Shown here: one piece after another, positions 20,364 through 62,330 of the stretch | How positions within the stretch are numbered: the first letter of the stretch is position 1 | Layout: the number at the start of each line of letters is the position of its first letter | Translations under genes and position numbers: made by a program | Notes under the pieces: generated by a model | What the model saw: the letters and a program-made list of their open reading frames with translations, nothing else | What the model was told of the DNA's origin: nothing | Databases searched by the model: none | Source of the DNA: a virus | Strand: one strand, 5' to 3' | Virus record (IMG/VR): IMGVR_UViG_3300047554_000536 | Coordinates: 1-64,000 of that record | Length of the DNA: 64,000 bases

Positions 20364-21971
20364 ATGAGCAAGACAAAGGTTTTAAGTTTCAATTCAGAAG
20401 CGCGCGACAAAGTGCGTAGTGGTGTTAATCAGTTATCATCTGCAGTTCAAGCAACACTAGGGCCAAAAGGTCGTAACGTGATGATTGAGCGTGAGCATGG
20501 TGGTCCAGTTATCACAAAGGATGGTGTATCAGTAGCTAAGGAGATTTATCTAAAAGATCCAGTAGAGAATGCAGGTGCACAAGCCTTAAAAGAGGTTTCA
20601 ATGAAAGCAGCTAAGATGGCTGGTGATGGTACAACTACCGCAACCGTATTGGCAGCTTATATGTACAACGAAGGTTTGAAAGCAATCAATGCTGGTCACA
20701 ATCCTATCGAGCTTAAGCGTGGTATGGATAAGGCGTCAGCAGCAGTTATTGATAATCTTCGTGAGATGAGTCGTGACGTAGTCACAAATGAAGAAATCCA
20801 ACAAGTAGCAACAATCTCAGCAAACAACGATTCAACAATCGGAGCAATCATTGCTGAGGCTATGGAAAGTGTTGGTAAGAATGGTGTGATCCAGGTGGAC
20901 GAGTCTAAGACTTCGGAGACTACATTGGAGATTGTTGAGGGTATGCAGATTGAGCGTGGATTTGTTTCACCTTACTTTGCAACAAACAATAACACAATGA
21001 CAACTACATTGGAGAATCCGTACATCTTGATCTACGACCGTAAGATTAGCTCTGTTAAAGACATCTTACCATTGTTGGAGACTTGTAGTAAGCAAAACAA
21101 ACCACTCGTAATTATCGCTGATGATGTTGATGGTGAAGCTTTAGCTGCACTAGTACTTAACAAAGCTCGTGGTATCTTGAATGTAGTAGCAATCAAAGCT
21201 CCAGGATTTGGTGATCGTAAGATTCACAACCTAGAAGACATTGCTATCCTAACTGGTGGTACTGTTGTAGCACAGCAAAAGGCAATGAAGTTGGAGAAAC
21301 TGACAATCGAGATGTTAGGTACGTCACGTACTGTCACAGTTTCTCAAAATGAAACTATCATTGTGGATGGTGCTGGTGATTCAGAGGCTATTAAGGCTCG
21401 TATCGAAGAAATCAAAGCTCAGTATGAAAAAGCTGATAGCGATTACGAGAAACAATTCTTGAAAGAGCGTATGAGTAAATTGATTGGTGGTGTTGCAGTG
21501 TTAAACATTGGAGCAGCAACAGAGATTGAACTCAAAGAAAAGAAAGACCGCGTTGACGATGCATTGCATGCAACACGTGCAGCTGTTGAAGAAGGAATTG
21601 TTCCAGGTGGTGGTATTGCTCTATACAATGCATCACAAATTGATGTCGAGGTTGAGAACGAAGACCAAGAAGTTGGAGTTAAGATTGTTAAGAGAGCATG
21701 CTTTGCACCATTTAAAGCAATCGTAGAGAATGCAGGAAAGAGTGCTGAAGCTTTAGTAGCAAACATTGACAGCGATACTTGGGGTTATGATGCTCGTAAT
21801 GATCGCTTTGTTGATATGTTTGTAGCTGGTATTATCGATCCAACTAAAGTTACACGTACAGCAATCGAATTAGCTACATCAGCAGCTAGTACACTATTAA
21901 CAACTGAGTGTGTTATCAGTTTTGATCCTGAAGAGAAGGATGAGAAAGGGTCCGCACCAGCTTATTACTAA
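20364..21971 (+). CDS. groEL: chaperonin GroEL
   Basis: TLGPKGRNV, ITKDGVSVA, AGDGTTTATVLA, GIVPGGG, GIIDPTKVTR. Confidence 0.97.
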   Translation: MSKTKVLSFNSEARDKVRSGVNQLSSAVQATLGPKGRNVMIEREHGGPVITKDGVSVAKEIYLKDPVENAGAQALKEVSMKAAKMAGDGTTTATVLAAYMYNEGLKAINAGHNPIELKRGMDKASAAVIDNLREMSRDVVTNEEIQQVATISANNDSTIGAIIAEAMESVGKNGVIQVDESKTSETTLEIVEGMQIERGFVSPYFATNNNTMTTTLENPYILIYDRKISSVKDILPLLETCSKQNKPLVIIADDVDGEALAALVLNKARGILNVVAIKAPGFGDRKIHNLEDIAILTGGTVVAQQKAMKLEKLTIEMLGTSRTVTVSQNETIIVDGAGDSEAIKARIEEIKAQYEKADSDYEKQFLKERMSKLIGGVAVLNIGAATEIELKEKKDRVDDALHATRAAVEEGIVPGGGIALYNASQIDVEVENEDQEVGVKIVKRACFAPFKAIVENAGKSAEALVANIDSDTWGYDARNDRFVDMFVAGIIDPTKVTRTAIELATSAASTLLTTECVISFDPEEKDEKGSAPAYY

Positions 21972-43697: not shown

Positions 43698-44028
43698 GAA
43701 TGTCACTGAACTAAAAGAGAAGTACCCTGAAATCGCTCAAGAGTTTGAGCGTATCGTTGCCGAGCAGTATGATCTGTTTGCAGGCAAGATGATTGACTAT
43801 GGGAAAGGAAACATTAGTGTTGGCACTAATCTAGAAACTCCCGAGGAAGTTAAGTTATCACTTACGGGGTTATGGTTCCGAATGAATGATAAGATGAATC
43901 GTTTGAAGAATCTTGTATTACTGAACCAAAACCCTAAAGTGACTACTGAGTCTACTCAGGACACTTTCCAGGACCTATCAATCTATGGTATCATTGCACA
44001 GATTGTGCAGAACGGTAAATGGAAGTAA
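43687..44028 (+). CDS. nucleotide-modification-associated helical domain (DUF1599-like)
   Basis: KMIDYG, RMNDKMNRLKNL, ESTQDTFQDLSIYGII. Confidence 0.7.
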   Translation: MASKNVTELKEKYPEIAQEFERIVAEQYDLFAGKMIDYGKGNISVGTNLETPEEVKLSLTGLWFRMNDKMNRLKNLVLLNQNPKVTTESTQDTFQDLSIYGIIAQIVQNGKWK

Positions 44029-44099
44029 TTTTTTATAGCTGTTGTCTATTTAAGATTATGGTCGTATCTTTGGCCTAACATTTAAAAAACACATAGCAT

Positions 44100-44327
44100 A
44101 TGAAGAATTGTAAAGTTTGCGGAATTGAAATTCCAGCTGGAAGATTGAAAGCATTACCAACAGCAACTACTTGCGTGGAGCATTCAACCACATCAAGGTT
44201 TGGTCATAACATAGTACAAGTTGGTAATCTAGAAGATGACGGATATCAAGAAGTTGAAGTAATCCGTGATCCGAAAGCTTTGGAGACACTTAATCAGTAT
44301 AAACAACAACAAGGCAATTACAAGTAA
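44100..44327 (+). CDS. DksA/TraR-type zinc-finger protein
   Basis: CKVCGIEIPAGRLKALPTATTCVEH. Confidence 0.75.
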   Translation: MKNCKVCGIEIPAGRLKALPTATTCVEHSTTSRFGHNIVQVGNLEDDGYQEVEVIRDPKALETLNQYKQQQGNYK

Positions 44328-44548
44328 TGGCTGACGATAGACACGAAGCGTACCGAATGCTGTTTGGAACAACTGAACTCAGTAGATTGTTTAGTAAGTA
44401 TGGTGAGTCTTATCCAACCGGATACATAGCGTATCGGTTACTAGAGATAAAGCATGAACACCCAGACAGCTCAGTAGCTCATATCATTCAGTTAGCTATC
44501 AAATTTTTTGAAGATGAGCGAACTGCAAGAAAGGATAACCAGAATTGA
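44327..44548 (+). CDS. hypothetical protein
   Basis: TAATG-coupled ORF. Confidence 0.55.
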   Translation: MADDRHEAYRMLFGTTELSRLFSKYGESYPTGYIAYRLLEIKHEHPDSSVAHIIQLAIKFFEDERTARKDNQN

Positions 44549-44879
44549 ACCAGTCTACGACTTTGATAAAGTTGCTGGAGGCTATTTCAAAATCTATTAC
44601 GGAGTGGAGACAGATGCTACAATCAAACTCAGCTTCGTACCTTTCCTAGATAATCGCATTCGTCAAAGTGATGAGTTGTTTAAGTATCTGAAGAAGACTT
44701 CAAAGGACAAAACCGTATCGCATGCAATATACGATTTGTATGACATAGGTTTTCCGGTCGATGAGTGGGTTGAAGAGTATATAGAAACTGCAAAGAATAG
44801 TGCAAATGCTGAACTCTTCAACGCACTCATTCACTTCTACAATCACATCAAAAATTTTAACACAGGAAGTATAGAATAA
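44508..44879 (+). CDS. hypothetical protein
   Basis: Operon-packed ORF. Confidence 0.6.
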   Translation: MKMSELQERITRIEPVYDFDKVAGGYFKIYYGVETDATIKLSFVPFLDNRIRQSDELFKYLKKTSKDKTVSHAIYDLYDIGFPVDEWVEEYIETAKNSANAELFNALIHFYNHIKNFNTGSIE

Positions 44880-45286
44880 TGGGATCAATATCAGATTACA
44901 TCGATTGTCCAAAGTGCGGTAACGAAGCACATCAGGAGTTTCAGTATAAGACTGGAGAAGAACATATCTTATGTTTGCATTGTGGTTACAGCCGCAAGTT
45001 CTACATATCGAATTGGGATGCGAAAGAGAGTGAGGGTGATGACTGGACTCCTAAGTATGAGCTAGAAGAGCTTGTTGGTCATGGAGCTTACAGAATCCGT
45101 GCAAAGGGTTTCAATGCATATGAGGTTGGTAGCTTTGCTAGTGAGGAAGAGATTGAGAGCTACAAGCAGATGGTTGAAGCTCGCAAGGAAGAGATTGCTC
45201 ACGCAGAGTATACTACAGTAGGTGAAGACGGCACATCATACGTAACAATCTTAATCCAAGGTGATATAGAAAGTTTTGAAGAATAG
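44879..45286 (+). CDS. zinc-ribbon hypothetical protein
   Basis: CPKCG...CLHCGY. Confidence 0.65.
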   Translation: MGSISDYIDCPKCGNEAHQEFQYKTGEEHILCLHCGYSRKFYISNWDAKESEGDDWTPKYELEELVGHGAYRIRAKGFNAYEVGSFASEEEIESYKQMVEARKEEIAHAEYTTVGEDGTSYVTILIQGDIESFEE

Positions 45287-45337
45287 CTGTTGCCTAAACG
45301 AAAATAAGGTAGTATATTTAAAGAAATAAACAAACAT

Positions 45338-45490
45338 ATGGCAGGTAACTGGAAATTAAAAATTGAATGTCTTGATCAGTGGATGAAGGCAACAACTGGA
45401 AAAGGGTTGTTTCGTGAGAAGTCGGAAAAACCGAAGACTGAAGTGAAATTTGGTAAACCAAATAGAACGAAATTCAACAAACAACGTTAA
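45338..45490 (+). CDS. small basic protein, 50 aa (not in ORF track)
   Basis: Follows the promoter at 45288-45320; TAATG-coupled to the next ORF. Confidence 0.55.
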   Translation: MAGNWKLKIECLDQWMKATTGKGLFREKSEKPKTEVKFGKPNRTKFNKQR

Positions 45491-45690
45491 TGGCTAAAAA
45501 AAGGGAAGAACCGGTCTTTGAGAAGTTTACAAGGATTTATGAGGATGAGGATACTAAGACAGTTTGGACATATGATTACTCAGTCACAAAGACCGGTCCC
45601 GTTAGTGTAGAGATCACTTACAAAAATCTCCCAAAGGTAGAAAGAAAAAAGAAAAAAACAAAAATAACTAGAAAAACTGTTGCAAAATAG
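45490..45690 (+). CDS. small basic hypothetical protein
   Basis: 66 aa, Lys-rich tail. Confidence 0.6.
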   Translation: MAKKREEPVFEKFTRIYEDEDTKTVWTYDYSVTKTGPVSVEITYKNLPKVERKKKKTKITRKTVAK

Positions 45691-45712
45691 GATTTTCTAG
45701 AGTATATTTAAA
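45677..45712 (+). promoter_or_regulatory. Bacteroidota-type promoter of the leader/tRNA operon (a TATTTATA motif follows at 45732)
   Basis: ctgttgca-aaataggattttctagag-tatattta matches the recurrent consensus. Confidence 0.65.
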
Positions 45713-45744
45713 GAAAGAAAGAAAACGAGTATATTTATATAAGC

Positions 45745-45867
45745 ATGAAAGCAAACCTTAGACATATAGCATCTTGTAATTATCGCCTAGAGCAATCGAT
45801 TCCGGCAGGAATGGGCTTTACGTGGGTGGATAGCAAATGCAAGTCCGAGGTTCACAAACTCATGTAA
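45745..45867 (+). CDS. putative attenuator leader peptide containing all 20 amino acids (MKANLRHIASCNYRLEQSIPAGMGFTWVDSKCKSEVHKLM)
   Basis: Translated by hand; A-rich start context; all 20 residues occur by codon 29; codons 34-37 carry the antiterminator arm. Confidence 0.8.
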   Translation: MKANLRHIASCNYRLEQSIPAGMGFTWVDSKCKSEVHKLM

Positions 45868-45910
45868 GGTAATGTAAAACAAACAAACCTAAATATAGAT
45901 GAACCTCGGA
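45844..45910 (+). promoter_or_regulatory. antiterminator helix of the tRNA-operon attenuator
   Basis: tccgaggttca (45844-45854) is the exact reverse complement of tgaacctcgga (45900-45910), the terminator's 5' arm. Confidence 0.8.
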
Positions 45911-45936
45911 TCCAAAAGATACCGAGGTTTTTTTTT
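45902..45936 (+). terminator. intrinsic terminator (attenuator) upstream of the tRNA array
   Basis: aacctcgg-atc-caaaa-gat-a-ccgaggtt followed by 7 further T. Confidence 0.88.
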
Positions 45937-45943
45937 GGGTTAA

Positions 45944-45955
45944 TGTTCTTTGAAA
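45944..45955 (+). promoter_or_regulatory. boxA-like antitermination element
   Basis: tgttctttgaaa resembles rrn boxA (TGCTCTTTAACA; GTTCTTTGA variants), just before the first tRNA. Confidence 0.55.
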
Positions 45956-45971
45956 TGTTGGATACAAAAAC

Positions 45972-46043
45972 GTATTAGTAGCTCAGTGGTAGAGCAGGCG
46001 GCTGTTAACCGTCAGGTCGTAGGTTCGAATCCTTCCTAGTACG
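45972..46043 (+). tRNA. tRNA-Asn(GTT)
   Basis: Cloverleaf; ggcgg-ctGTTaa-ccgtc. Confidence 0.92.
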
Positions 46044-46049
46044 CAATAT

Positions 46050-46124
46050 TGCGGGATGCGTAGAAGTTGGTTATCTCGTCAGTCTCATAAGCTGAAGTCC
46101 CCGGTTCGAGTCCGGGTCCCGCAA
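46050..46124 (+). tRNA. tRNA-Met(CAT), initiator-like acceptor stem
   Basis: tgcggga/tcccgca; tcagt-ctCATaa-gctga; lacks the three consecutive G-C anticodon-stem pairs of canonical fMet. Confidence 0.8.
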
Positions 46125-46130
46125 CATAAT

Positions 46131-46204
46131 GATCTCGTAGCTCAGTTGGATAGAGCACCTCACTTTTAATGAGGGAGTCGATGGTTCGAGCCCATCCGGG
46201 ATCA
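46131..46204 (+). tRNA. tRNA-Lys(TTT)
   Basis: cctca-ctTTTaa-tgagg. Confidence 0.93.
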
Positions 46205-46210
46205 CTTAAT

Positions 46211-46281
46211 ACGTCTGTGGTGAAATGGTATCATGCCGGTCTCCAAAACCGTTGTTGAGGGTTCGAATCCTTCCAGTCGTG
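46211..46281 (+). tRNA. tRNA-Trp(CCA)
   Basis: cggt-ctCCAaa-accg. Confidence 0.9.
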
Positions 46282-46286
46282 CAATT

Positions 46287-46359
46287 GCCTTCGTAGCTCA
46301 ATTGGCAGAGCACCGCACTTGTAATGCGGGGGTTGTAGGTTCGACTCCTATCGAAGGCT
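46287..46359 (+). tRNA. tRNA-Thr(TGT)
   Basis: ccgca-ctTGTaa-tgcgg. Confidence 0.93.
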
Positions 46360-46366
46360 CAAAAAT

Positions 46367-46440
46367 ATTGGTATAGCTCAATTGGTCAGAGCATTCGCCT
46401 GATACGCGAAAGGTTTCAAGTTCGAGTCTTGATATCAATA
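46367..46440 (+). tRNA. tRNA-Ile(GAT)
   Basis: ttcgc-ctGATac-gcgaa. Confidence 0.9.
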
Positions 46441-46446
46441 CTACAA

Positions 46447-46519
46447 CTAGGTGTGGGAAAGTTGGTAATCCGCGGCATTTGGGATGCTGAGATCGCAGGT
46501 TCGAGTCCTGCCACTTAGA
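46447..46519 (+). tRNA. tRNA-Pro(TGG)
   Basis: cggca-ttTGGga-tgctg. Confidence 0.9.
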
Positions 46520-46524
46520 CAAAC

Positions 46525-46598
46525 GGTCCTTTAGCTCAGTTGGTTAGAGCAGCTCGCTCATAACGAGAAGGTCTCAGGTTCGAGCCCTGAATGGACCA
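46525..46598 (+). tRNA. tRNA(CAT), probably Ile2 (lysidine) rather than elongator Met
   Basis: ctcg-ctCATaa-cgag; 5' GGTCCTTTAGCTCAG resembles ileX-type tRNAs. Confidence 0.8.
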
Positions 46599-46600
46599 CA

Positions 46601-46720
46601 AAGGAAGTGCAAGAGAGTCCTTAATGCGCAAAGAAGATCCTTGCTGTACAGTGTGGAAAGACATACAAAATAGTTTTAACGGGGGCTCCGGTTCTATTCA
46701 AAAACGCGATTAGCCTTCAC
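46601..46720 (+). ncRNA. candidate structured RNA in tRNA spacer 1
   Basis: Helices gcaag/cttgc, tgta/taca, aatag/ctatt; possible pseudoknot taatgcgc/gcgatta. Confidence 0.4.
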
Positions 46721-46722
46721 CA

Positions 46723-46795
46723 CTTTCCTTAGCTCAGTTGGTAGAGCGTTGCCCTTACATGGCAAAAGTCGTTGGTTCGAGTCCAGCAGGGAAGA
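46723..46795 (+). tRNA. tRNA-Val(TAC)
   Basis: ttgcc-ctTACat-ggcaa. Confidence 0.92.
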
Positions 46796-46865
46796 CAAGG
46801 AGTTCTCGATCTCAAGTGCTGGTTAGTGAAACATCTAATCGATGAGCCCATCAAAATCAGAATAG

Positions 46866-46947
46866 GCCTGTATCGCATAGCGGCAATTGCAGCTGACTGT
46901 AAATCAGCTCCCTAACGGGTTCGGAGGTTCGAGTCCTTCTGCAGGCA
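46866..46947 (+). tRNA. tRNA-Tyr(GTA)
   Basis: gctga-ctGTAaa-tcagc, long variable arm. Confidence 0.92.
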
Positions 46948-46955
46948 CAAAAAAT

Positions 46956-47028
46956 GGACCGGTAGCTCAGTTGGTAGAGCGTTGGCCTGAAGAGCCAAGC
47001 GTCGGGGGTTCGAATCCCTCCCGGTCCA
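46956..47028 (+). tRNA. tRNA-Phe(GAA)
   Basis: ttggc-ctGAAga-gccaa. Confidence 0.93.
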
Positions 47029-47037
47029 CAATAATAA

Positions 47038-47110
47038 GCAGGTGTCGTATAATGGCTTATTACTCCAGTCTTCCAAACTGGAGATGAGAGTTCGATTCTC
47101 TCCACCTGCT
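47038..47110 (+). tRNA. tRNA-Gly(TCC)
   Basis: ccagt-ctTCCaa-actgg. Confidence 0.93.
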
Positions 47111-47113
47111 CAA

Positions 47114-47194
47114 AAGACAGATACCCGACGGGGAACGTAGAAGCGCCGGAATGAATTAGCACTGTAGGTCCGGGACGTGTGCAAAGTCTGTCTT
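47114..47194 (+). ncRNA. candidate structured RNA in tRNA spacer 3
   Basis: 9-bp closing stem aagacagat/gtctgtctt; inner ccgga/tccgg and acgt/acgt. Confidence 0.5.
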
Positions 47195-47199
47195 ATCTT

Positions 47200-47272
47200 G
47201 GGGTTGTAGCTCAACTGGCTGAGCGTTACATTTGCAATGTAAAGGATGAGGGTTCGAATCCCTTCAGCTCCA
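47200..47272 (+). tRNA. tRNA-Ala(TGC)
   Basis: ttaca-ttTGCaa-tgtaa; G3-U70 pair. Confidence 0.93.
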
Positions 47273-47277
47273 CAATC

Positions 47278-47349
47278 GGTCCATTGGTGTAATGGTTAAC
47301 ATGCGGCACTGTCTATGCTGCGCTACGAGTTCGATTCTCGTATGGACCG
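47278..47349 (+). tRNA. tRNA-Asp(GTC)
   Basis: cggca-ctGTCta-tgctg. Confidence 0.9.
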
Positions 47350-47355
47350 CTATCT

Positions 47356-47426
47356 TGTCCTGTAGTGAAATGGCATCACACGGCGTTTTGGCCGCTGGGT
47401 TAGAGGTTCGAATCCTCTCGGGACAA
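47356..47426 (+). tRNA. tRNA-Gln(TTG)
   Basis: cggcg-ttTTGgc-cgctg. Confidence 0.9.
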
Positions 47427-47431
47427 CAATT

Positions 47432-47517
47432 GGAAGAGTAACTGCAGCGGCCTGCAGCACTGTCTTGAAAACAGCTGGTACCTTGACCGGTATGGGGATC
47501 GACACCTCACTCTTCCG
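47432..47517 (+). tRNA. tRNA-Ser(TGA)
   Basis: ctgt-ctTGAaa-acag, long variable arm, atypical T-loop (atcgaca). Confidence 0.82.
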
Positions 47518-47524
47518 CTTATAT

Positions 47525-47598
47525 GGTGTCTATAGCTCAGTAGGTAGAGCAAAGGGTTGTGGTCCCTTGTGCCGTGAGTTCGATTCTCACTAGTCACC
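47525..47598 (+). tRNA. tRNA-His(GTG)
   Basis: aaggg-ttGTGgt-ccctt; encoded G-1 opposite C73. Confidence 0.9.
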
Positions 47599-47603
47599 CA
47601 ATT

Positions 47604-47687
47604 GGAGAGTAAAGCAGTCAGGGCACTGTCACCGCCTGCTAAGCGAGTGGTACTTTCGAGTATGAATTTCGATTATTCTGCTCTCCG
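47604..47687 (+). tRNA. tRNA-Ser(GCT)
   Basis: cgc-ctGCTaa-gcg, long variable arm, divergent D and T arms. Confidence 0.78.
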
Positions 47688-47692
47688 CAAAT

Positions 47693-47764
47693 GCCTCTAT
47701 CGTTCAATGGATAGGACACGGCCCTTCTAAGGCTGTTATTGGGGTTCGAGTCCCTATAGAGGTA
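47693..47764 (+). tRNA. tRNA-Arg(TCT)
   Basis: cggcc-ctTCTaa-ggctg. Confidence 0.92.
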
Positions 47765-47766
47765 CT

Positions 47767-47897
47767 AGGTGATAAAAAAGCGTAGGTTGGTAGACGTGGA
47801 GAGACGTGTCGCAAGGGTACACACTTAGCAGCTCTATTATGGTGTGTGAAGCACTGCTCAGCAGATCCCAGATTCCTGATAAAGCCAACCATCACCT
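47767..47897 (+). ncRNA. candidate structured RNA in tRNA spacer 4
   Basis: aggtgat/atcacct stacked on ggttgg/ccaacc; inner tacacac/gtgtgtg. Confidence 0.55.
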
Positions 47898-47902
47898 TTC
47901 AT

Positions 47903-47974
47903 GCTCTGTTAGTTCAACGGATAGAACACTTGACTACGGATCAAGAGATAGGAGTTCGAATCTCTTACGGAGTA
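47903..47974 (+). tRNA. tRNA-Arg(ACG)
   Basis: cttga-ctACGga-tcaag. Confidence 0.92.
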
Positions 47975-47981
47975 CTAATAA

Positions 47982-48051
47982 GGTCAGTTTAGTCGTGGAG
48001 GCTGGTAGGTCTGCAAAACCTATGGAGTTGGTTCGATTCCAACATTGACCT
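47982..48051 (+). tRNA. tRNA-Cys(GCA)
   Basis: taggt-ctGCAaa-accta; shortened D arm. Confidence 0.85.
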
Positions 48052-48067
48052 CAAAAAAACAAAAGCT

Positions 48068-48523
48068 ATGAAGACGTTTAGAAGTTTAACAAACAGAAAG
48101 GAAGTAGATTTAATTCCTTACGTATCCAACTTTATCAAAGAAAATGATGACACAGTATTGTATGTTGGTTGTGACTCTCAGAACGTCCGCGACAATACAA
48201 ACTACGCTGTCGTGATCGTTTTGTATAATCCTGGAAAGGGTGGGCACGTATTGTATTCAAGAACCACAATGCCAAAGATTGAAGACCGTTACACTAAGTT
48301 GTGGAATGAGGTTGAGTATTCAATCGAGGTAGCAGAGTACTTAACTAACAATGGTATCCAACGTCCAAGCTATATTGACTTAGACTTGAATCCAGATCCA
48401 AAATACAAAAGCAATCAAATTTTGAGAGCTGCGCTTGGATATGTGGAGAGTATGGGGTATATTGCTAGATGTAAACCTAATGCAATGGTAGCATCTCACG
48501 TAGCAGATGCCTTATGTAAATAA
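48068..48523 (+). CDS. RNase H-like YkuK (DUF458) family protein
   Basis: LYVGCDSQ, YAVVIVL..PGKGG, KLWNEVEYSIEVA, IDLDLN, KPNAMVASHVAD. Confidence 0.8.
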   Translation: MKTFRSLTNRKEVDLIPYVSNFIKENDDTVLYVGCDSQNVRDNTNYAVVIVLYNPGKGGHVLYSRTTMPKIEDRYTKLWNEVEYSIEVAEYLTNNGIQRPSYIDLDLNPDPKYKSNQILRAALGYVESMGYIARCKPNAMVASHVADALCK

Positions 48524-48534
48524 GTTATCAACAG

Positions 48535-48570
48535 CTGTTGTCTAGGTGAACAAAAGTTCCTATCTTTACT
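48535..48570 (+). promoter_or_regulatory. Bacteroidota-type promoter for the second tRNA block
   Basis: ctgttgtc...tatcttta. Confidence 0.6.
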
Positions 48571-48580
48571 GTATAGAAAT

Positions 48581-48658
48581 GCCCCTTTGGCGGAATTGGT
48601 AGACGCGCTAGACTTAGGATCTAGTCTTCGGGTGAGAGTTCGAGTCTCTCAGGGGGTA
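48581..48658 (+). tRNA. tRNA-Leu(TAG)
   Basis: ctaga-ctTAGga-tctag. Confidence 0.92.
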
Positions 48659-48663
48659 CAAAT

Positions 48664-48749
48664 GCTACTGTGGTGAAATAGGTAGACACGAGGGACTTAA
48701 AATCCCTTGGCCAGTGATGGTCGTGCCGGTTCGATTCCGGCCAGTAGTA
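48664..48749 (+). tRNA. tRNA-Leu(TAA)
   Basis: aggga-ctTAAaa-tccct, long variable arm. Confidence 0.93.
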
Positions 48750-48764
48750 CTAAATTAATTACAT

Positions 48765-48983
48765 ATGTGGAGTAAAGTGTTAAAGTTTGCAACCAATTTT
48801 TTATATTGGTTTTTAGGTTTCTCAATGATGGCATTGGGTGCAGAGCTTTTATTGATATGGCTCAAAGAAGATGGTTTTAGTATTACTGGTTTTATTCTAG
48901 GATTCATGGGTTACCTAATCCTACGACCAGCAGCTGAGTACTGGAAAGATCAACTCCTTAGTGTTTGGAAATCTAAAGAATAA
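48765..48983 (+). CDS. small membrane protein
   Basis: Two hydrophobic segments. Confidence 0.65.
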   Translation: MWSKVLKFATNFLYWFLGFSMMALGAELLLIWLKEDGFSITGFILGFMGYLILRPAAEYWKDQLLSVWKSKE

Positions 48984-49001
48984 GTTGTATATTCAAACAA
49001 T

Positions 49002-49073
49002 GGCCCGTTAGTCTATCGGTTAGGACGCATCCCTTTCACGGATGAGAGACGAGTTCGATTCTCGTACGGGCTA
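49002..49073 (+). tRNA. tRNA-Glu(TTC)
   Basis: catcc-ctTTCac-ggatg. Confidence 0.92.
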
Positions 49074-49088
49074 CTAAAATTAAAACAA

Positions 49089-49343
49089 ATGAAAAGGTTA
49101 CAAATCATCACATTGGCACTTTTAACAGCAGCTGCAACAATCACCTCTTGTACAGACAATCAACGTGCAAAGAATTGGGGTGGAACCGAAACAATCACAC
49201 TAAAACCAAACGAGCGAGTGCTTAACGTCACTTGGAAAGAGACTGAGATGTGGATTTGCACTCAGGATACTACTACCGGAGTTGTGTACTTCCGCGAGAA
49301 GTCTAACTGGGGTATGATGGAAGGTACGGTTATTTTGAAGTAA
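49089..49343 (+). CDS. lipoprotein
   Basis: Signal peptide with lipobox ITSC; CTDNQRAKNWGG. Confidence 0.75.
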   Translation: MKRLQIITLALLTAAATITSCTDNQRAKNWGGTETITLKPNERVLNVTWKETEMWICTQDTTTGVVYFREKSNWGMMEGTVILK

Positions 49344-49351
49344 CCGACCAT

Positions 49352-49459
49352 AGTCAGGTGGCGGAATTGGTAGACGCTGCGCTTTATATCAGGTGTATAA
49401 AGGTGAATCTTGGTCGAAAGATTGCAACAAGAATACAGGTTCAAATCCTGTCCTGACTA
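49352..49459 (+). ncRNA. tRNA-like RNA with Leu-type D arm and intact acceptor/T arms but a replaced anticodon arm
   Basis: agtcagg/cctgact, tggcggaattggtagacgc, acagg-ttcaaat-cctgt; centre holds two hairpins instead of an anticodon arm. Confidence 0.7.
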
Positions 49460-49503
49460 CAAATAATGCAGGTTCTTTGACATATTCAAAAAAAGGAAAC
49501 GAT

Positions 49504-49836
49504 ATGGAAACACTATCATTTGCTTTTGGAGTGTTAACAATGGTGGGAGTGGCATTTGCTGCTCTTATTATTGTGAGCATTGTAAAGGCGTACAAGCAAC
49601 AAACACGTATTCAACAACTAGAGGAATGGCTCTTGAATGTTGATAGAGATTATCACTACCAAGATAACGAAGTCTATAAAGCTATTGACGATCGAATCAG
49701 GGGTGTGAATGATCAAATCACTGATTCAGTTACTCAATGTAACTCCTATACAGATAAACGAATCGACAAGCTGATCGATACCTACTTTATGGTAAAAGAA
49801 GCTGAAAAACAAACCAAGAAACAGTTAAACGGATAA
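49504..49836 (+). CDS. membrane-anchored coiled-coil protein (start moved to ATG 49504)
   Basis: METLSFAFGVLTMVGV.. TM helix; the upstream extension in the ORF track overlaps the tRNA-like RNA. Confidence 0.7.
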   Translation: METLSFAFGVLTMVGVAFAALIIVSIVKAYKQQTRIQQLEEWLLNVDRDYHYQDNEVYKAIDDRIRGVNDQITDSVTQCNSYTDKRIDKLIDTYFMVKEAEKQTKKQLNG

Positions 49837-49877
49837 ACTAACCCGTCATAAGAACCTGCATTTAATTTTTGAAGACT

Positions 49878-50321
49878 ATGGAAAAATATTACATTTATTT
49901 AGATGACCTACGCACACCACGCCAAGAGGAGTTGGTAGATAGGCCACAATGGACAGTCGTAAGAAACTACGATGAGTTTGTAAACAAGATCACTGAGGTT
50001 GGTTTGGAGAATGTTGAACTCATCTCACTAGATCACGACTTAGGTGAGTCTGCGATGCAAGAGTGGCACACTAACGTATACCACAACTACACCTTAGATT
50101 ACAACAACATTACTGAGAAGACTGGAATGGATTGTACTAAGTGGTTGGTAGAGCAATGGTTGAATGGTGCACCAGTATGTCGTGTTATGGTTCATTCAGC
50201 AAATGCTGTTGGAAGTGCGAACATGATGGGGTATATTAACAACTACAAGCACATCCACCGCTTACCACAAGACTGCGCTAGATGGGTAGTGCCTCATGAT
50301 ATTGAAACAATTATAGGATAA
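49878..50321 (+). CDS. cyclic-phosphate-processing receiver-domain protein
   Basis: IYLDDLRTP, VVRNYDEF, ISLDHDLG, TGMDCTKWL, VHSANAVG. Confidence 0.75.
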   Translation: MEKYYIYLDDLRTPRQEELVDRPQWTVVRNYDEFVNKITEVGLENVELISLDHDLGESAMQEWHTNVYHNYTLDYNNITEKTGMDCTKWLVEQWLNGAPVCRVMVHSANAVGSANMMGYINNYKHIHRLPQDCARWVVPHDIETIIG

Positions 50322-50587
50322 TGGAAGCAATCGTAGTAGCATTAATGGCACTTGTGTTCTTGTTAGGTCTAGGCTTGACCTCAGCAATAATTCACATACG
50401 AGCTATACAAAAGGAGTTAGAAGCTCTTAGTGAAGTTGATGAGGAGCAAGATGAGATGATCACTAAAGTACTCGAATACAATAGGGATTTAGCTTTAGCT
50501 ATTAGAGAACTTCAGAATCACGTAATACAACAACAATCACAATCATTTCCGACATACCCGTATGGAGGACCAATAGGAGAAGCATAA
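50321..50587 (+). CDS. membrane-anchored hypothetical protein
   Basis: N-terminal TM helix plus coiled coil. Confidence 0.6.
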   Translation: MEAIVVALMALVFLLGLGLTSAIIHIRAIQKELEALSEVDEEQDEMITKVLEYNRDLALAIRELQNHVIQQQSQSFPTYPYGGPIGEA

Positions 50588-50590
50588 GTT

Positions 50591-51214
50591 ATGAAGGTAA
50601 AAGCAGCAGATACATTCTTCGATAGTGTTGAACGAATGATCAATAGACAAAGATGGTACTGGAAGTCTTGGGACTTCTTGAGATATGATATGCCTAGATT
50701 TTTTAAGAATCTCTGGTTGTTCAGAAAAGACCTATACAAGTATCGCTGGTATAGTGGTGATGATGCAGTACTTCCTTTCATGAGGACAGCTTTGATGGAT
50801 ATGGCTAAAAACATTGATGAGCGTGGCTTAGAAGTGGATGTGACTAGAAAGAAGAAAGTCGCTAAGATGTATCGTGCTGTATTCTTGATGGAACGATTCC
50901 TTGAAGATGACTTTGTTGAGATGGCTGAAAAAGAATTAGGAGAGCTTCAGAATACAAAAGTCGAATTTGAACCAGCGGATGAAGAAGGTTACTGGAGACT
51001 AAAGGATTCAGATACTCCAGAGCAGCAAGCTCACAATCGTAAAGTGTTTGCTCGAGCTCGTGAGATTGAAAGCCAAATGTGGACTGAGCTGTGGACTATT
51101 CTAGAAGGTCAGAAGGCATCACACTTTGATGTGTTTCTAGATAAAGCTGAGGATAAGAATGGTGCGTGGAACAATTGGTTCGATGGTTCAGGATTAAGAG
51201 GTTGGTGGGATTAA
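50591..51214 (+). CDS. hypothetical phage protein
   Basis: 207 aa ending GLRGWWD. Confidence 0.7.
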   Translation: MKVKAADTFFDSVERMINRQRWYWKSWDFLRYDMPRFFKNLWLFRKDLYKYRWYSGDDAVLPFMRTALMDMAKNIDERGLEVDVTRKKKVAKMYRAVFLMERFLEDDFVEMAEKELGELQNTKVEFEPADEEGYWRLKDSDTPEQQAHNRKVFARAREIESQMWTELWTILEGQKASHFDVFLDKAEDKNGAWNNWFDGSGLRGWWD

Positions 51215-52954: not shown

Positions 52955-53707
52955 ATGAAAATTACATTAATATCAGATACACATACGAGACATCGTCATT
53001 GTGAGCAAGACTTACCAGGTGGTGACTTGCTGATCCACGCAGGAGACTTTATGAACTCTGGATATAGTCCATACGAGGCAGAAGAATTCTTCAAGTGGTT
53101 TGATGCAATTGAGCATTATGATACAAAAGTATTCATTGCAGGTAATCATGATCGTATAATGGAGAATGATCCTGAATGGGCTAGAGGTGTATTGACTGGG
53201 TATAAGACTATTGAGTATCTACAAGATGAGAGTCTAACGCTATACTACGATGGTCCTAATGGCGATCATCCAGAAGACAACGTTCGTATTTGGGGTGCAC
53301 CTTGGCAACCTGAGTTTTACAATTGGGCTTTCAATCTTCCTCGCAATGGTGAAGAGTTACGGGAGAAGTGGTCTTTGATTCCATCAAATACAGATATCCT
53401 CATTACACACGGTCCTGCTCAGACGTATCTAGATACATCAGGTGCTCCATACAACACACCGCTACTTGGGTGTGAGTTATTGAAAGAGCGTATTGAATCA
53501 ATTAGACCTAAGATCCATGTGTGTGGCCATATTCACGGTGGTCATGGTTACTACTTTAATGGGCACACTCACTTTTTCAATGCATCGATACTGGATGAGA
53601 GGTACAATTACGCCAATCTTCCATTCATGTTTACCTGGGATCAAGTAACAAATCAAATTATTTGGGATGAACCTGTTGCAAAAACGAAAAAGAGGTTGTA
53701 TATTTAG
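52955..53707 (+). CDS. metallophosphoesterase (calcineurin-like)
   Basis: ISDTH, HAGD, IAGNHD, ITHGP, CGHIH. Confidence 0.9.
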   Translation: MKITLISDTHTRHRHCEQDLPGGDLLIHAGDFMNSGYSPYEAEEFFKWFDAIEHYDTKVFIAGNHDRIMENDPEWARGVLTGYKTIEYLQDESLTLYYDGPNGDHPEDNVRIWGAPWQPEFYNWAFNLPRNGEELREKWSLIPSNTDILITHGPAQTYLDTSGAPYNTPLLGCELLKERIESIRPKIHVCGHIHGGHGYYFNGHTHFFNASILDERYNYANLPFMFTWDQVTNQIIWDEPVAKTKKRLYI

Positions 53708-60951: not shown

Positions 60952-61216
60952 AGAGCAAAAGCAAGAGCAAGCGGTTGTTGATCTTATCAACAAGATGTTT
61001 GAGATTGCTGGACATGAGGTTACTTACAATGACATCTTAGGGGTGGACAACTGGTTCCAACAGTACACAATGACTATGAAGCAGTCAGAGGAGTTTAGAG
61101 ATTGGGGTAAGAAGTATCTTGTTAAGACATTTCGAATGTCAGCCAAGAGAGCAGAGAACGAAATGATGTGGTTTAATTTACAATGGGGTTTAAAATATTC
61201 AGACTATGGAAAATAA
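60932..61216 (+). CDS. hypothetical protein
   Basis: Operon-packed ORF. Confidence 0.6.
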   Translation: MAKRLTREQKQEQAVVDLINKMFEIAGHEVTYNDILGVDNWFQQYTMTMKQSEEFRDWGKKYLVKTFRMSAKRAENEMMWFNLQWGLKYSDYGK

Positions 61217-62330
61217 TAATAGCGTATGTTACATTGGTACAATCGGAGAGATTCTACCAATAAGTGGAGCAGATAATATCGAGCTAGCGTTGGTCGGTGG
61301 CTGGCAAGCTATCATCAAGAAGGATGCATATGAGGTGAATGATTTAGTTATGATAGCTACTACAGATGCTATTATTCCACAAGCGCTTTCAGATGATATG
61401 AATGTCACTAGCTACCTACGCAAAGGTGGACGTGTGCGCACTGTTAAGTTGAGAGGTGTGTACTCAGAGTGCTTGATTATTCCAGTACAATACATTCCAT
61501 TCATGGATAACTACTACGATGGTAAGGACATGATGGACGTGATGGGTATCTACAAATACGAACCACCAGTACGTCAGGTACAATTATCATCAGGTCGTAA
61601 GATCCGATACCAAGATAATCCTAACTTCCATATCTACTACAAGTTTCCTAACCTAAAGAATGTAGCTGGAATGTTTACTGAGGGTGATTTAGTTGAGATT
61701 ACTAGAAAGATTCATGGTACAAATGCTCGCTATGGTATTGTGAAGAAGGCGAAGCTATCTTTGTGGGATAAGGTTAGAAAGTTCTTTACAAACAATCCAT
61801 GGATCGAGTATGAGTATGTGTACGGATCACATAACGTGGAGAAAGGTTCTGACTCTCAAGGATTCTACGATACTGATGTGTGGGCAACAATTGCAGAAAA
61901 GCATGATATTAAGAATGCATTGTGGGATTACGCTAAGACTCAAGGTCACAAAGCAATTGGTGAAGGTATTGTATTGTATGGAGAAATCTACGGAGCCGGT
62001 ATTCAAAAGAATTACGACTACGGACTGAGCCATACTGACTTCATGGGCTTTGATGTTAAGGTTAATGGTGAGTACGTCTCTACTTACAGAGCTTGGAAAA
62101 TTATTGAGCATCAGTTAAATTTGGAATATGTACCAATCTTACACTACGGTGAATGGTCTCAGGAGATCCAAGACAAGTACACATTCAACAACTATGTTGG
62201 AGATTCAAAGGTACCACACGAAGGTATTGTTATCAAATACTTCGACGGTTCACGTAACAAAGTAGCTAAGGTGATCAATCCAGATTACTTGATCTATGGA
62301 GAGAAGCATGACGTAGGAGATTCACACTAA
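61206..62330 (+). CDS. RNA ligase, DRB0094/Rnl5 family
   Basis: N-terminal OB domain (PISGADNIELA, VRTVKLRGVYSE), motif I RKIHGTN, GEIYG, FDV, HEGIVIK, KVINPDYL. Confidence 0.88.
   Translation: MENNNSVCYIGTIGEILPISGADNIELALVGGWQAIIKKDAYEVNDLVMIATTDAIIPQALSDDMNVTSYLRKGGRVRTVKLRGVYSECLIIPVQYIPFMDNYYDGKDMMDVMGIYKYEPPVRQVQLSSGRKIRYQDNPNFHIYYKFPNLKNVAGMFTEGDLVEITRKIHGTNARYGIVKKAKLSLWDKVRKFFTNNPWIEYEYVYGSHNVEKGSDSQGFYDTDVWATIAEKHDIKNALWDYAKTQGHKAIGEGIVLYGEIYGAGIQKNYDYGLSHTDFMGFDVKVNGEYVSTYRAWKIIEHQLNLEYVPILHYGEWSQEIQDKYTFNNYVGDSKVPHEGIVIKYFDGSRNKVAKVINPDYLIYGEKHDVGDSH

Follow-up and report, generated by a model that had tools for sequence, protein, structure and literature searches.

The leader-peptide attenuators of enterobacteria (trpL, hisL, leuL and pheL) combine a short leader with alternative 1:2, 2:3 and 3:4 hairpins, the antiterminator being freed when regulatory codons are translated slowly. 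Some attenuators are multivalent, such as the ilvGMEDA leader with its isoleucine, leucine and valine codons and the thr leader with its threonine and isoleucine codons, and the control codons of the Salmonella leu leader are reportedly rare CUA codons, a result associated with Carter, Bartkus and Calvo and the year 1986. T-box riboswitches bind uncharged transfer RNA (tRNA) directly and act independently of translation. The control of tRNA genes in phages, and the reason for carrying them at all, are open questions in the field; among the current proposals are that phage tRNAs match codon usage, make up for host tRNAs that have been degraded, or evade anticodon nucleases. The accessible part of a survey of attenuation describes leaders of the ermC and cat type that sense a global slowdown of translation (PMC2965389), and a description of leader-peptide attenuation of tRNA genes was found neither there nor in a full-text literature search with subscription journals outside its scope. 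The stretch of viral DNA analyzed here, positions 1 to 64,000 of the IMG/VR record IMGVR_UViG_3300047554_000536 (64,000 nucleotides (nt), referred to as the window), contains a short open reading frame (ORF) at 45745..45867 on the plus strand, immediately before an intrinsic terminator and a large tRNA array. With a probability of roughly 0.7, this ORF is a leader of the trp type, part of a ribosome-mediated attenuator by which read-through of transcription from an upstream promoter into the tRNA array is gated. The support for this reading is computational throughout, and consists of the anatomy of the locus, the predicted alternative pairings, their covariation and a compositional match between leader and array.

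A candidate attenuator upstream of phage tRNA arrays

The ORF comprises 40 codons and a stop, and its product is a peptide of 40 amino acids, MKANLRHIASCNYRLEQSIPAGMGFTWVDSKCKSEVHKLM; homologous or analogous ORFs precede the tRNA arrays of related phages. Codons 1-30 (45745..45834, plus strand), the putative sensing part, include all 20 amino acids, the last being reached by codon 29, together with codons readable by all 21 tRNAs of the first block, and there is no run of any one codon. The hairpin of the terminator follows the leader after a spacer of 33 nt. The terminator (regions 3 and 4, 45901..45936, plus strand) consists of a G+C-rich hairpin at 45901-45930 and nine T at 45928-45936, although a simple terminator scan of the window did not list it. 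The last leader codons, in the window as in the relatives, include a near-copy of the 3' arm of this terminator, and the 3' end of the leader can therefore pair with the 5' arm. The two strands of the predicted antiterminator are region 2 (45843..45854, plus strand, within leader codons 33-37), which includes a 9-nt exact complement of the terminator 5' arm, and region 3 (45900..45911, plus strand), the 5' arm itself, assigned as the alternative partner of region 2 from folds and a duplex test. Only a single unit of ORF and switchable terminator was detected across the whole 72.5-kb record.

Relatives were gathered through an RNaseH-like ORF that lies inside the array (in the window, 151 amino acids at 48068..48523, plus strand, PF04308 and phrog_11311), which gave 44 and then 80 loci, the window itself not being among the 80. 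A detector requiring a terminator and an ORF of 15-70 codons whose tail offers 6 nt or more of complementarity recovered units at 50 of the 83 terminators located no more than 700 nt 5' of a same-strand tRNA, compared with 5 of 157 other terminators. The ORFs in these 50 units have 22-60 codons and occupy the same position. Clades with syntenic arrays share a homologous leader that starts with MKQT[LF]RH, while more distant phages have unrelated leaders at the same position; all of these leaders are followed by a T-run terminator. Leaders of different clusters have little common sequence and retain their properties. All 20 amino acids occur in 16 of the 42 distinct leader peptides, and 19 occur in a further 12. 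No unit was found in loci L044/L045 and L034-L036, and the L029-type leader has only a 5-bp match between regions 2 and 3, which was found by eye. The unit called in L066, with a 6-nt region 2 that includes a G-U pair, looks spurious.

Further searches added little to this set. A nucleotide search of a phage collection returned no relative, the sole match being a 44-nt tRNA stretch, and a DNA pattern built from the conserved leader start gave 19 matches, among which only the six contigs already in hand were recovered. In RNA libraries of two studies, contigs extend over 45722-45936 and 45722-46011 of a close relative, one ending near the T-run with 22 extra unaligned letters and the other continuing into tRNA-Asn; they attest presence only, with no indication of strand, ends or level. 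Among the 40 listed of 70 differences from the close relative, none falls within 45745-45867.

These observations bear on the simplest alternative, in which the ORF is an ordinary small phage protein or is untranslated, the hairpin is the terminator of an upstream operon, and the amino-acid completeness is a chance product of scanning. In its favor, the N-terminal elements MK.T[LF]RH, YR and GF.W are kept as peptide sequence in clades A and B and in the window, translation of the leader is itself predicted from sequence, and the probability of finding all 20 amino acids in 30 independent and identically distributed codons, 2.8e-4, is not negligible over a very large scan. However, such ORFs occur with an antiterminator preferentially at terminators before tRNAs, have a tail that co-varies with the terminator stem, and are often complete in amino acids (16 of the 42 distinct leaders); the split arrays with block-specific leaders, the frame-specific codon bias and the retention of leader properties by clusters with little common sequence, all described here, likewise speak against it, and this explanation is hardly credible.

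Alternative pairings and a proposed mechanism

In the window the terminator with its nine T folds at -15.3 kcal/mol, versus -23.3 kcal/mol for the helix of region 2 with region 3 (45843-54 with 45900-11). Comparable pairs of energies were obtained for eight other units, and in seven of the nine the predicted stability of the antiterminator equals or exceeds that of the terminator. In eight of these nine units region 2 begins 8-24 nt ahead of the stop codon; in the ninth, L068_1, the detector placed its start 35 nt before the stop, and the fold puts the helix right before the stop. In the minimum free energy (MFE) fold of the sequence from the leader start to region 2, region 1 (AACCTTAGAC, codons 4-7, 45754..45763, plus strand) pairs with 45843-45852, and its nucleotide motif is kept in clades A and B. 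The window, clades A and B, L026 and L033_1 have such a 1:2 protector pairing in their predicted MFE folds, and in L009 and L068 it is not clear. As modelled, pairing of region 1 would complete a four-region design of the trp type, in which this region is the predicted partner of region 2 when the leader is untranslated.

The stems of the terminators vary by lineage (CCTCGG, CCTCAAAC, CCTCGAGC, GCCCTGA, GCCCGAAC, CCCTGTCT and others), and the leader tails track them. In a duplex test, leader tails paired with their own terminator arm at a mean of -11.3 kcal/mol, versus -7.4 kcal/mol for permuted pairs (P=5e-5), and the own arm ranked first in six of ten units; as a control, the first 56 nt of the leaders gave a mean of -4.1 kcal/mol against the arm.

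The following sequence of events would account for this arrangement. With smooth translation of the leader, the ribosome would cover region 2 at the time when regions 3 and 4 are being synthesized by RNA polymerase, so that the terminator would form and few tRNA transcripts would result. A ribosome stalled anywhere within codons 1 to about 30 for want of a charged tRNA would leave region 2 free, and the antiterminator of regions 2 and 3 would then form and the array be transcribed. As phage tRNAs accumulated the leader would be read faster and the gate would close, which amounts to negative feedback. Region 1 would sequester region 2 whenever the leader is not translated. The sensing part would in this manner test each downstream tRNA species and not only each amino acid, and for boxes served by a single tRNA with U at position 34 (U34), namely Ser-TGA, Pro, Thr and Val, the rare G-ending wobble codon should be the one most sensitive to the level of the tRNA.

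Translation of the leader might also control the array otherwise than by a switch between 2:3 and 3:4 pairings, through Rho-dependent termination, processing or stability of the precursor, or arrest by the nascent peptide, the complementarity with the hairpin being of minor importance. Several features are consistent with this, as the hairpin model assigns no role to the conserved N terminus of the peptide or to the motif kept downstream of the terminator (see below), and an initiator-like tRNA precedes the leader in clades A and B and in L009, where RNA processing would have to create the 5' end of the leader. Yet what otherwise unrelated leaders conserve most is a T-run terminator together with a co-varying antiterminator, and no arrest-type motif common to the leader clusters was found, which makes a mechanism of this kind improbable.

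As to T-boxes, none was matched at E<=1 within 44000-51000 of the window (Rfam), and no T-box or other cis-regulatory Rfam family scored above its gathering score anywhere in the window.

Leader codons and the tRNA species of the array

The first tRNA block (45972..48052, plus strand, identified with ARAGORN and Rfam) contains 21 genes in the order Asn, CAT, Lys, Trp, Thr, Ile-GAT, Pro, CAT, Val, Tyr, Phe, Gly, Ala, Asp, Gln, Ser-TGA, His, Ser-GCT, Arg-TCT, Arg-ACG, Cys. Nineteen of these are called by default ARAGORN, with Rfam matches at the identical 19 places. The genes for Ser(TGA) at 47432-47518 and Ser(GCT) at 47604-47688 are called only under relaxed ARAGORN scoring and have no Rfam match at E<=1; both align with normally called Ser tRNAs of relatives that occupy identical array slots. 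The tRNA with anticodon CAT at 46050-46125, the second gene of the block, looks initiator-like, while that at 46525 is either Ile2 or elongator Met: its alignment fits neither decisively, and its array position is only a weak argument between the two. In some relatives the initiator-like tRNA(CAT) stands upstream of the leader start and outside the gated block, at 21-54 nt in clades A and B and at about 110 nt in L009 (positions 3351 in L007, 1972 in L014, 2690 in L020 and 3222 in L009), a placement that would fit a design in which initiation must not become limiting. Three more tRNA genes lie on the same strand beyond the RNaseH-like ORF (48581..49074), Leu-TAG at 48581-48659, Leu-TAA at 48664-48750 and Glu-TTC at 49002-49074.

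The initial annotation held that each of the 21 tRNAs of the block has a codon that it can read within leader codons 1-30, which is indeed the case (21/21), whether U34 tRNAs are allowed to read all four codons of a box (lax reading) or only those ending in A or G (strict reading). Both members of the split Arg and Ser families have their codons, and Ile is present as ATT and ATA; the further claim that Ile is covered on both sides is sound as to the codons and depends, as to the tRNAs, on the Ile2 identity of the CAT tRNA at 46525. Because the leader holds an internal ATG in addition to ATA, the ambiguity of this tRNA leaves the coverage intact under either identity. The G- and C-ending codons noted as uncommon are so in the 95 phage ORFs, with synonymous shares of 0.09 for CCG, 0.08 for ACG, 0.08 for TCG, 0.10 for CGC and 0.07 for GGC, and the leader is biased towards rare codons both over codons 2-30 (P=0.019) and over codons 2-40 (P=0.0017). 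TTA and TTG are likewise absent from the leader as described. The explanation offered for this absence, that tRNA-Leu(TAA) stands outside the block behind a promoter motif of its own, does not hold, since the genes for Leu(TAG) (48581) and Glu(TTC) (49002) are also located beyond that point and codons for them (CTT, CTA, CTC and GAG) are present; altogether 23 of the 24 downstream tRNAs are covered. Nor did a consensus scan place a promoter at 48535: the nearest promoter-like site is at 48436-48463, and only a loose copy of a pre-tRNA motif is found near 48535.

None of the 17,585 30-codon windows in the coding sequences of the phage (95 ORFs) covers the 21 tRNAs, the maximum being 20 under lax and 19 under strict reading, and none contains all 20 amino acids either, the maximum being 19. 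When the peptide was held fixed and synonymous codons were redrawn from phage usage, however, all 21 tRNAs were covered with a probability of 0.094 under lax reading, which is the chance of all three split families being covered, and 0.0084 under strict reading. With Leu(TAG), Leu(TAA) and Glu(TTC) added, 21 of 22 species other than those with CAT anticodons are covered (P=0.17). The chance signal within the window thus sits mostly at the amino-acid level, and the isoacceptor claim from this window alone is suggestive at best.

Among the relatives, the amino-acid content of leaders was found to correlate with that of their arrays, as 668 of 682 amino-acid kinds of the blocks are present in their own leaders. 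When each cluster is represented by a single leader, this becomes 154 of 156, both misses being Cys in clades A and B. The split arrays are especially telling. In L033, the leader of the first block (Pro-Asn-Leu-Tyr-Glu-Asp-Met-Val-Gln-Ser) has all ten of these amino acids and is devoid of Ala, Cys, Phe, His, Lys and Trp, whereas the leader of the second block (Ala-Ile-Phe-Lys-Cys-Trp-Arg-Ser-His-Met-Thr) has all eleven and is devoid of Asp, Glu, Gly, Leu and Tyr. For the split arrays of L033 and L068 combined, leaders are enriched for their own block with a binomial P=3.5e-9, and no enrichment is seen when the leader-block pairs are swapped; the split array of L121, judged by inspection, is complementary in the same way. 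In L009 the 52-codon leader is free of Leu (P of about 0.012), and both Leu tRNAs of this locus are located upstream of the leader.

The proposal that the leader samples tRNA species and not only amino acids finds its support in these relatives rather than in the window alone. In ten hand-curated units, 40 of 41 Leu, Arg and Ser codon classes with a block tRNA are present in the leader, versus 31.8 expected from synonymous resampling (P=2e-5), the sole miss being Leu(TAA) of the window. The split arrays again provide examples: the first leader of L033 has AGT where its block has only Ser-GCT, the second has four TCN codons where its block has only Ser-TGA, and the second leader of L068 has Arg only as AGA where its block has only Arg-TCT. 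Under strict wobble, coverage is 153 of 162 in the ten curated units (expected 136.0+-3.6), 673 of 719 in 40 automatically found leaders (611.9+-6.9), and 160 of 171 with one leader per 50%-identity cluster (144.9+-3.6), all ten clusters lying above the null mean. These counts omit tRNAs with CAT anticodons and anticodons not of three bases, and 2 of 42 leaders with fewer than three block tRNAs were dropped.

Codon choice at the third base is more specific still. In the Ser, Pro, Thr and Ala boxes of 43 leaders, NCG was observed 123 times and expected 26.0 times, NCC was observed 36 times (expected 31.5) and NCT 62 times (expected 132), while GTG was observed 35 times (expected 6.7). Codons ending in C are as rare in the coding sequences as those ending in G, yet they are not enriched, and G-ending codons are 4.7-fold up. 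Of the 45 CpGs in the leaders, 31 are at codon positions 2-3, compared with 21% in phage coding sequences; this frame-dependent placement is hard to explain unless the reading frame matters. A generic enrichment of CpG or of rare codons was considered as the source of the NCG excess and discarded, the CpGs being frame-specific and the C-ending codons unenriched. A U34 tRNA reads the G-ending codon by U-G wobble, and the avoided codons are typically read by tRNAs with G at position 34 (G34). As these phages carry one U34 tRNA per box of the NCG or GTG type, we infer that the preferred third base matches the wobble codon of the U34 tRNA, and that the avoided codons need G34 tRNAs which the phages do not supply. 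The window obeys the same rule, with TCG, CCG, ACG and GTG in its leader.

These data also allow evaluation of an alternative in which the attenuator senses amino acids or the general speed of translation, and in which agreement with the tRNA codons is a by-product of a preference for slow or diverse codons. Some observations would be expected under it. Leu, Arg and Ser classes with no block tRNA are not avoided (5/11, P=0.20; with Ile added, 7/21, P=0.60), so that the match between leader and array is one of coverage and not of exclusivity; the leaders are rich in rare codons overall; Leu(TAA) is uncovered in the window, Cys is absent from the leaders of clades A and B, and the conditional tests restricted to the window are not significant. 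However, the excess of rare codons is not general, as the near-neutral NCC, depleted NCT and increased G-ending codons fit the decoding range of U34 tRNAs, the classes that do have a tRNA are covered in 40 of 41 cases, and coverage exceeds a null with uniform codon use as well (673/719 versus 620.5+-7.3, and per cluster 160/171 versus 146.2+-3.75). Sensing of amino acids or of speed alone is therefore considered unlikely.

For the attenuator reading as a whole, a number of observations weigh in the opposite direction. Leader translation, terminator activity and the response of read-through to tRNA supply are in silico inferences, and the nearness of region 2 to the stop codon makes its masking by a terminating ribosome uncertain. 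Many of the leaders are homologous, so that counts over all leaders overstate independence and the figures with one leader per cluster are safer; the tRNA calls depend on relaxed ARAGORN scoring, under which false or degenerate genes are possible. The indifference of leaders to codon classes with no block tRNA has been mentioned, as has the lack of a significant synonymous-level match in the window alone under lax reading or with the distal tRNAs added. In addition, Leu(TAA) is encoded downstream of a leader that has neither TTA nor TTG, the clade A and B leaders are devoid of Cys although their arrays encode tRNA-Cys, the clade B leaders contain ATA although no ATA-reading tRNA was called, and the L029-type leader contains the full set of 20 amino acids although the visible array, which is incomplete, is devoid of several tRNAs. 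Finally, the motif or promoter-like site found after the terminator (see below) may mean that the attenuator controls only part of tRNA transcription.

A broader interpretation of the attenuator can be put forward only tentatively, at slightly less than even odds: that phage tRNA arrays are run by a closed-loop, codon-resolved homeostat, in which the leader displays the weakest codon, whether wobble or rare, for each tRNA species carried, shortage of a single species (such as might follow the firing of a host anticodon nuclease or of a defence that depletes tRNAs) opens the whole array, and the array acts as an inducible counter-defence and not as a constitutive supplement to codon usage. The natural trigger is probably, if speculatively, loss or shortage of host tRNAs during infection, caused by nuclease attack, host shut-off or codon mismatch. 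If the attenuator is real, phage tRNA output would be coupled to the decoding state of the infected cell, and a reporter placed behind the leader would read out the limiting tRNA during infection or after a defence has fired. If the homeostat interpretation is also true, the leader would amount to a naturally occurring OR gate with many inputs, sensing the decoding capacity of the infected cell. The wobble-codon rule, with G-ending codons for U34 tRNAs, makes a specific prediction of codon sensitivity that is potentially useful for synthetic sensors of the tRNA pool.

Setting of the locus and comparison with known systems

The source record is an IMG/VR virus contig of 72,496 bases with an estimated completeness of 43%, and the phage record is present in freshwater metagenomes. 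Its genes include those for DnaB, ribonucleotide reductase, DNA polymerase, GroEL, thymidylate synthase and RNA ligase, the GroEL-type chaperonin being at 20364-21971 (phrog_5725, E=8e-168). The host is probably of the Bacteroidota type, judging from promoter-like motifs and the absence of Shine-Dalgarno sequences. Promoter-like motifs 5' of the leader occupy 45680..45738 on the plus strand, where a consensus scan found two sites ending in TATATT and where AGTATATTTA is repeated at 45701 and 45728; these are putative promoters. Altogether there are three exact copies of AGTATATTTA on the plus strand (45311, 45701 and 45728), no more than 420 nt upstream of the leader and of a small ORF at 45338, and they may be -7-type promoter elements of a Bacteroidota-like host. 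Genes of RNA processing and repair are found nearby: in addition to the RNaseH_like ORF at 48068-48523, these encode a cyclic-phosphate processing receiver domain (PF20274) at 49869-50321, a calcineurin-like phosphoesterase at 52955-53707 and an RNA ligase (PF09414) at 61206-62330. The presence of the RNA ligase and the cyclic-phosphate receiver protein would be in keeping with a phage exposed to tRNA damage.

Between the terminator and the first tRNA is a conserved 16-nt motif, TCTTTGAAATGTTGGA (45947..45962, plus strand), with similar motifs in relatives. Motifs resembling TCTTTGAMATDTTGGA are present between terminator and first tRNA in the window and in L003, L007, L014, L009 and L033, and the window has another at 49474-49489 and a looser copy before Leu-TAG, near 48550. 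In L003, L014, L015, L020 and L026 the stretch from the terminator to the first tRNA contains a promoter-like site (TTTG, about 19 nt, TAnnTTTA).

Several further RNA features were noted in and around the arrays. Three spacers between tRNA genes of the window are conserved, 46600-46722 being 90-92% identical to the Ala-Val gap of clade B, 47112-47199 being 82-84% identical to clade B and 47766-47902 being 72% identical to L026 6073-6209; all fold into stems, with no Rfam match, and may represent small RNAs or decayed tRNAs. An odd tRNA-like gene of 108 nt at 49352-49459 scores 39.7 bits against the Rfam tRNA model and is called by intron-permitting ARAGORN as a tRNA-Phe(GAA) interrupted by an intron of 30 nt; several further copies of its 5' and 3' ends are present in L033, L066, L014, L036 and L009/L010. 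The GOLLD RNA (RF02032, 265-272 bits) lies beside the arrays of L009 (2779-3203), L007 (7148-7567) and L003 (7394-7817), in L009 between Leu-TAA and the initiator-like tRNA and just upstream of the leader, and no GOLLD RNA was found in the window.

Compared with T-boxes, the proposed system would similarly couple translation-related genes to the state of specific tRNAs through a switch between terminator and antiterminator, but it is based on a leader ORF and has no match to the T-box model. As in the case of ermC- and cat-type leaders, a leader ORF would report on the speed of translation in general; those leaders act on translation initiation of resistance genes in response to a drug-bound ribosome, however, whereas the signal proposed here is tRNA supply. 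The closest resemblance is to the trp, his and leu attenuators, with which the locus shares a short ORF, predicted alternative hairpins and an intrinsic terminator. It differs from them in that the regulated genes are tRNAs and not genes for biosynthetic enzymes or aminoacyl-tRNA synthetases, in that the leader has no run of one codon and instead devotes a single codon or a small number of codons to almost every amino acid and tRNA species, and in its occurrence in a phage with a probable Bacteroidota-type host, as suggested by motifs and the lack of Shine-Dalgarno sequences, in place of enterobacteria. Several amino acids would be sensed by one leader, as in the multivalent attenuators, but those respond to two or three amino acids of the same pathway, in comparison with 20 amino acids and 23 of 24 downstream tRNA species here. 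As in the leu leader of Salmonella, rare and slowly decoded synonymous codons would give sensitivity, although the choice here is made box by box, with the G-ending wobble codon of each U34 tRNA used for many amino acids. The new elements are tRNA genes as the target, a leader that samples the whole code, a codon choice that follows the decoding range of the phage tRNAs, and the wobble-codon rule; if confirmed, they would extend leader-peptide attenuation to RNA genes, to a setting of apparently Bacteroidota type where Shine-Dalgarno sequences are not used, and to whole-code sampling.

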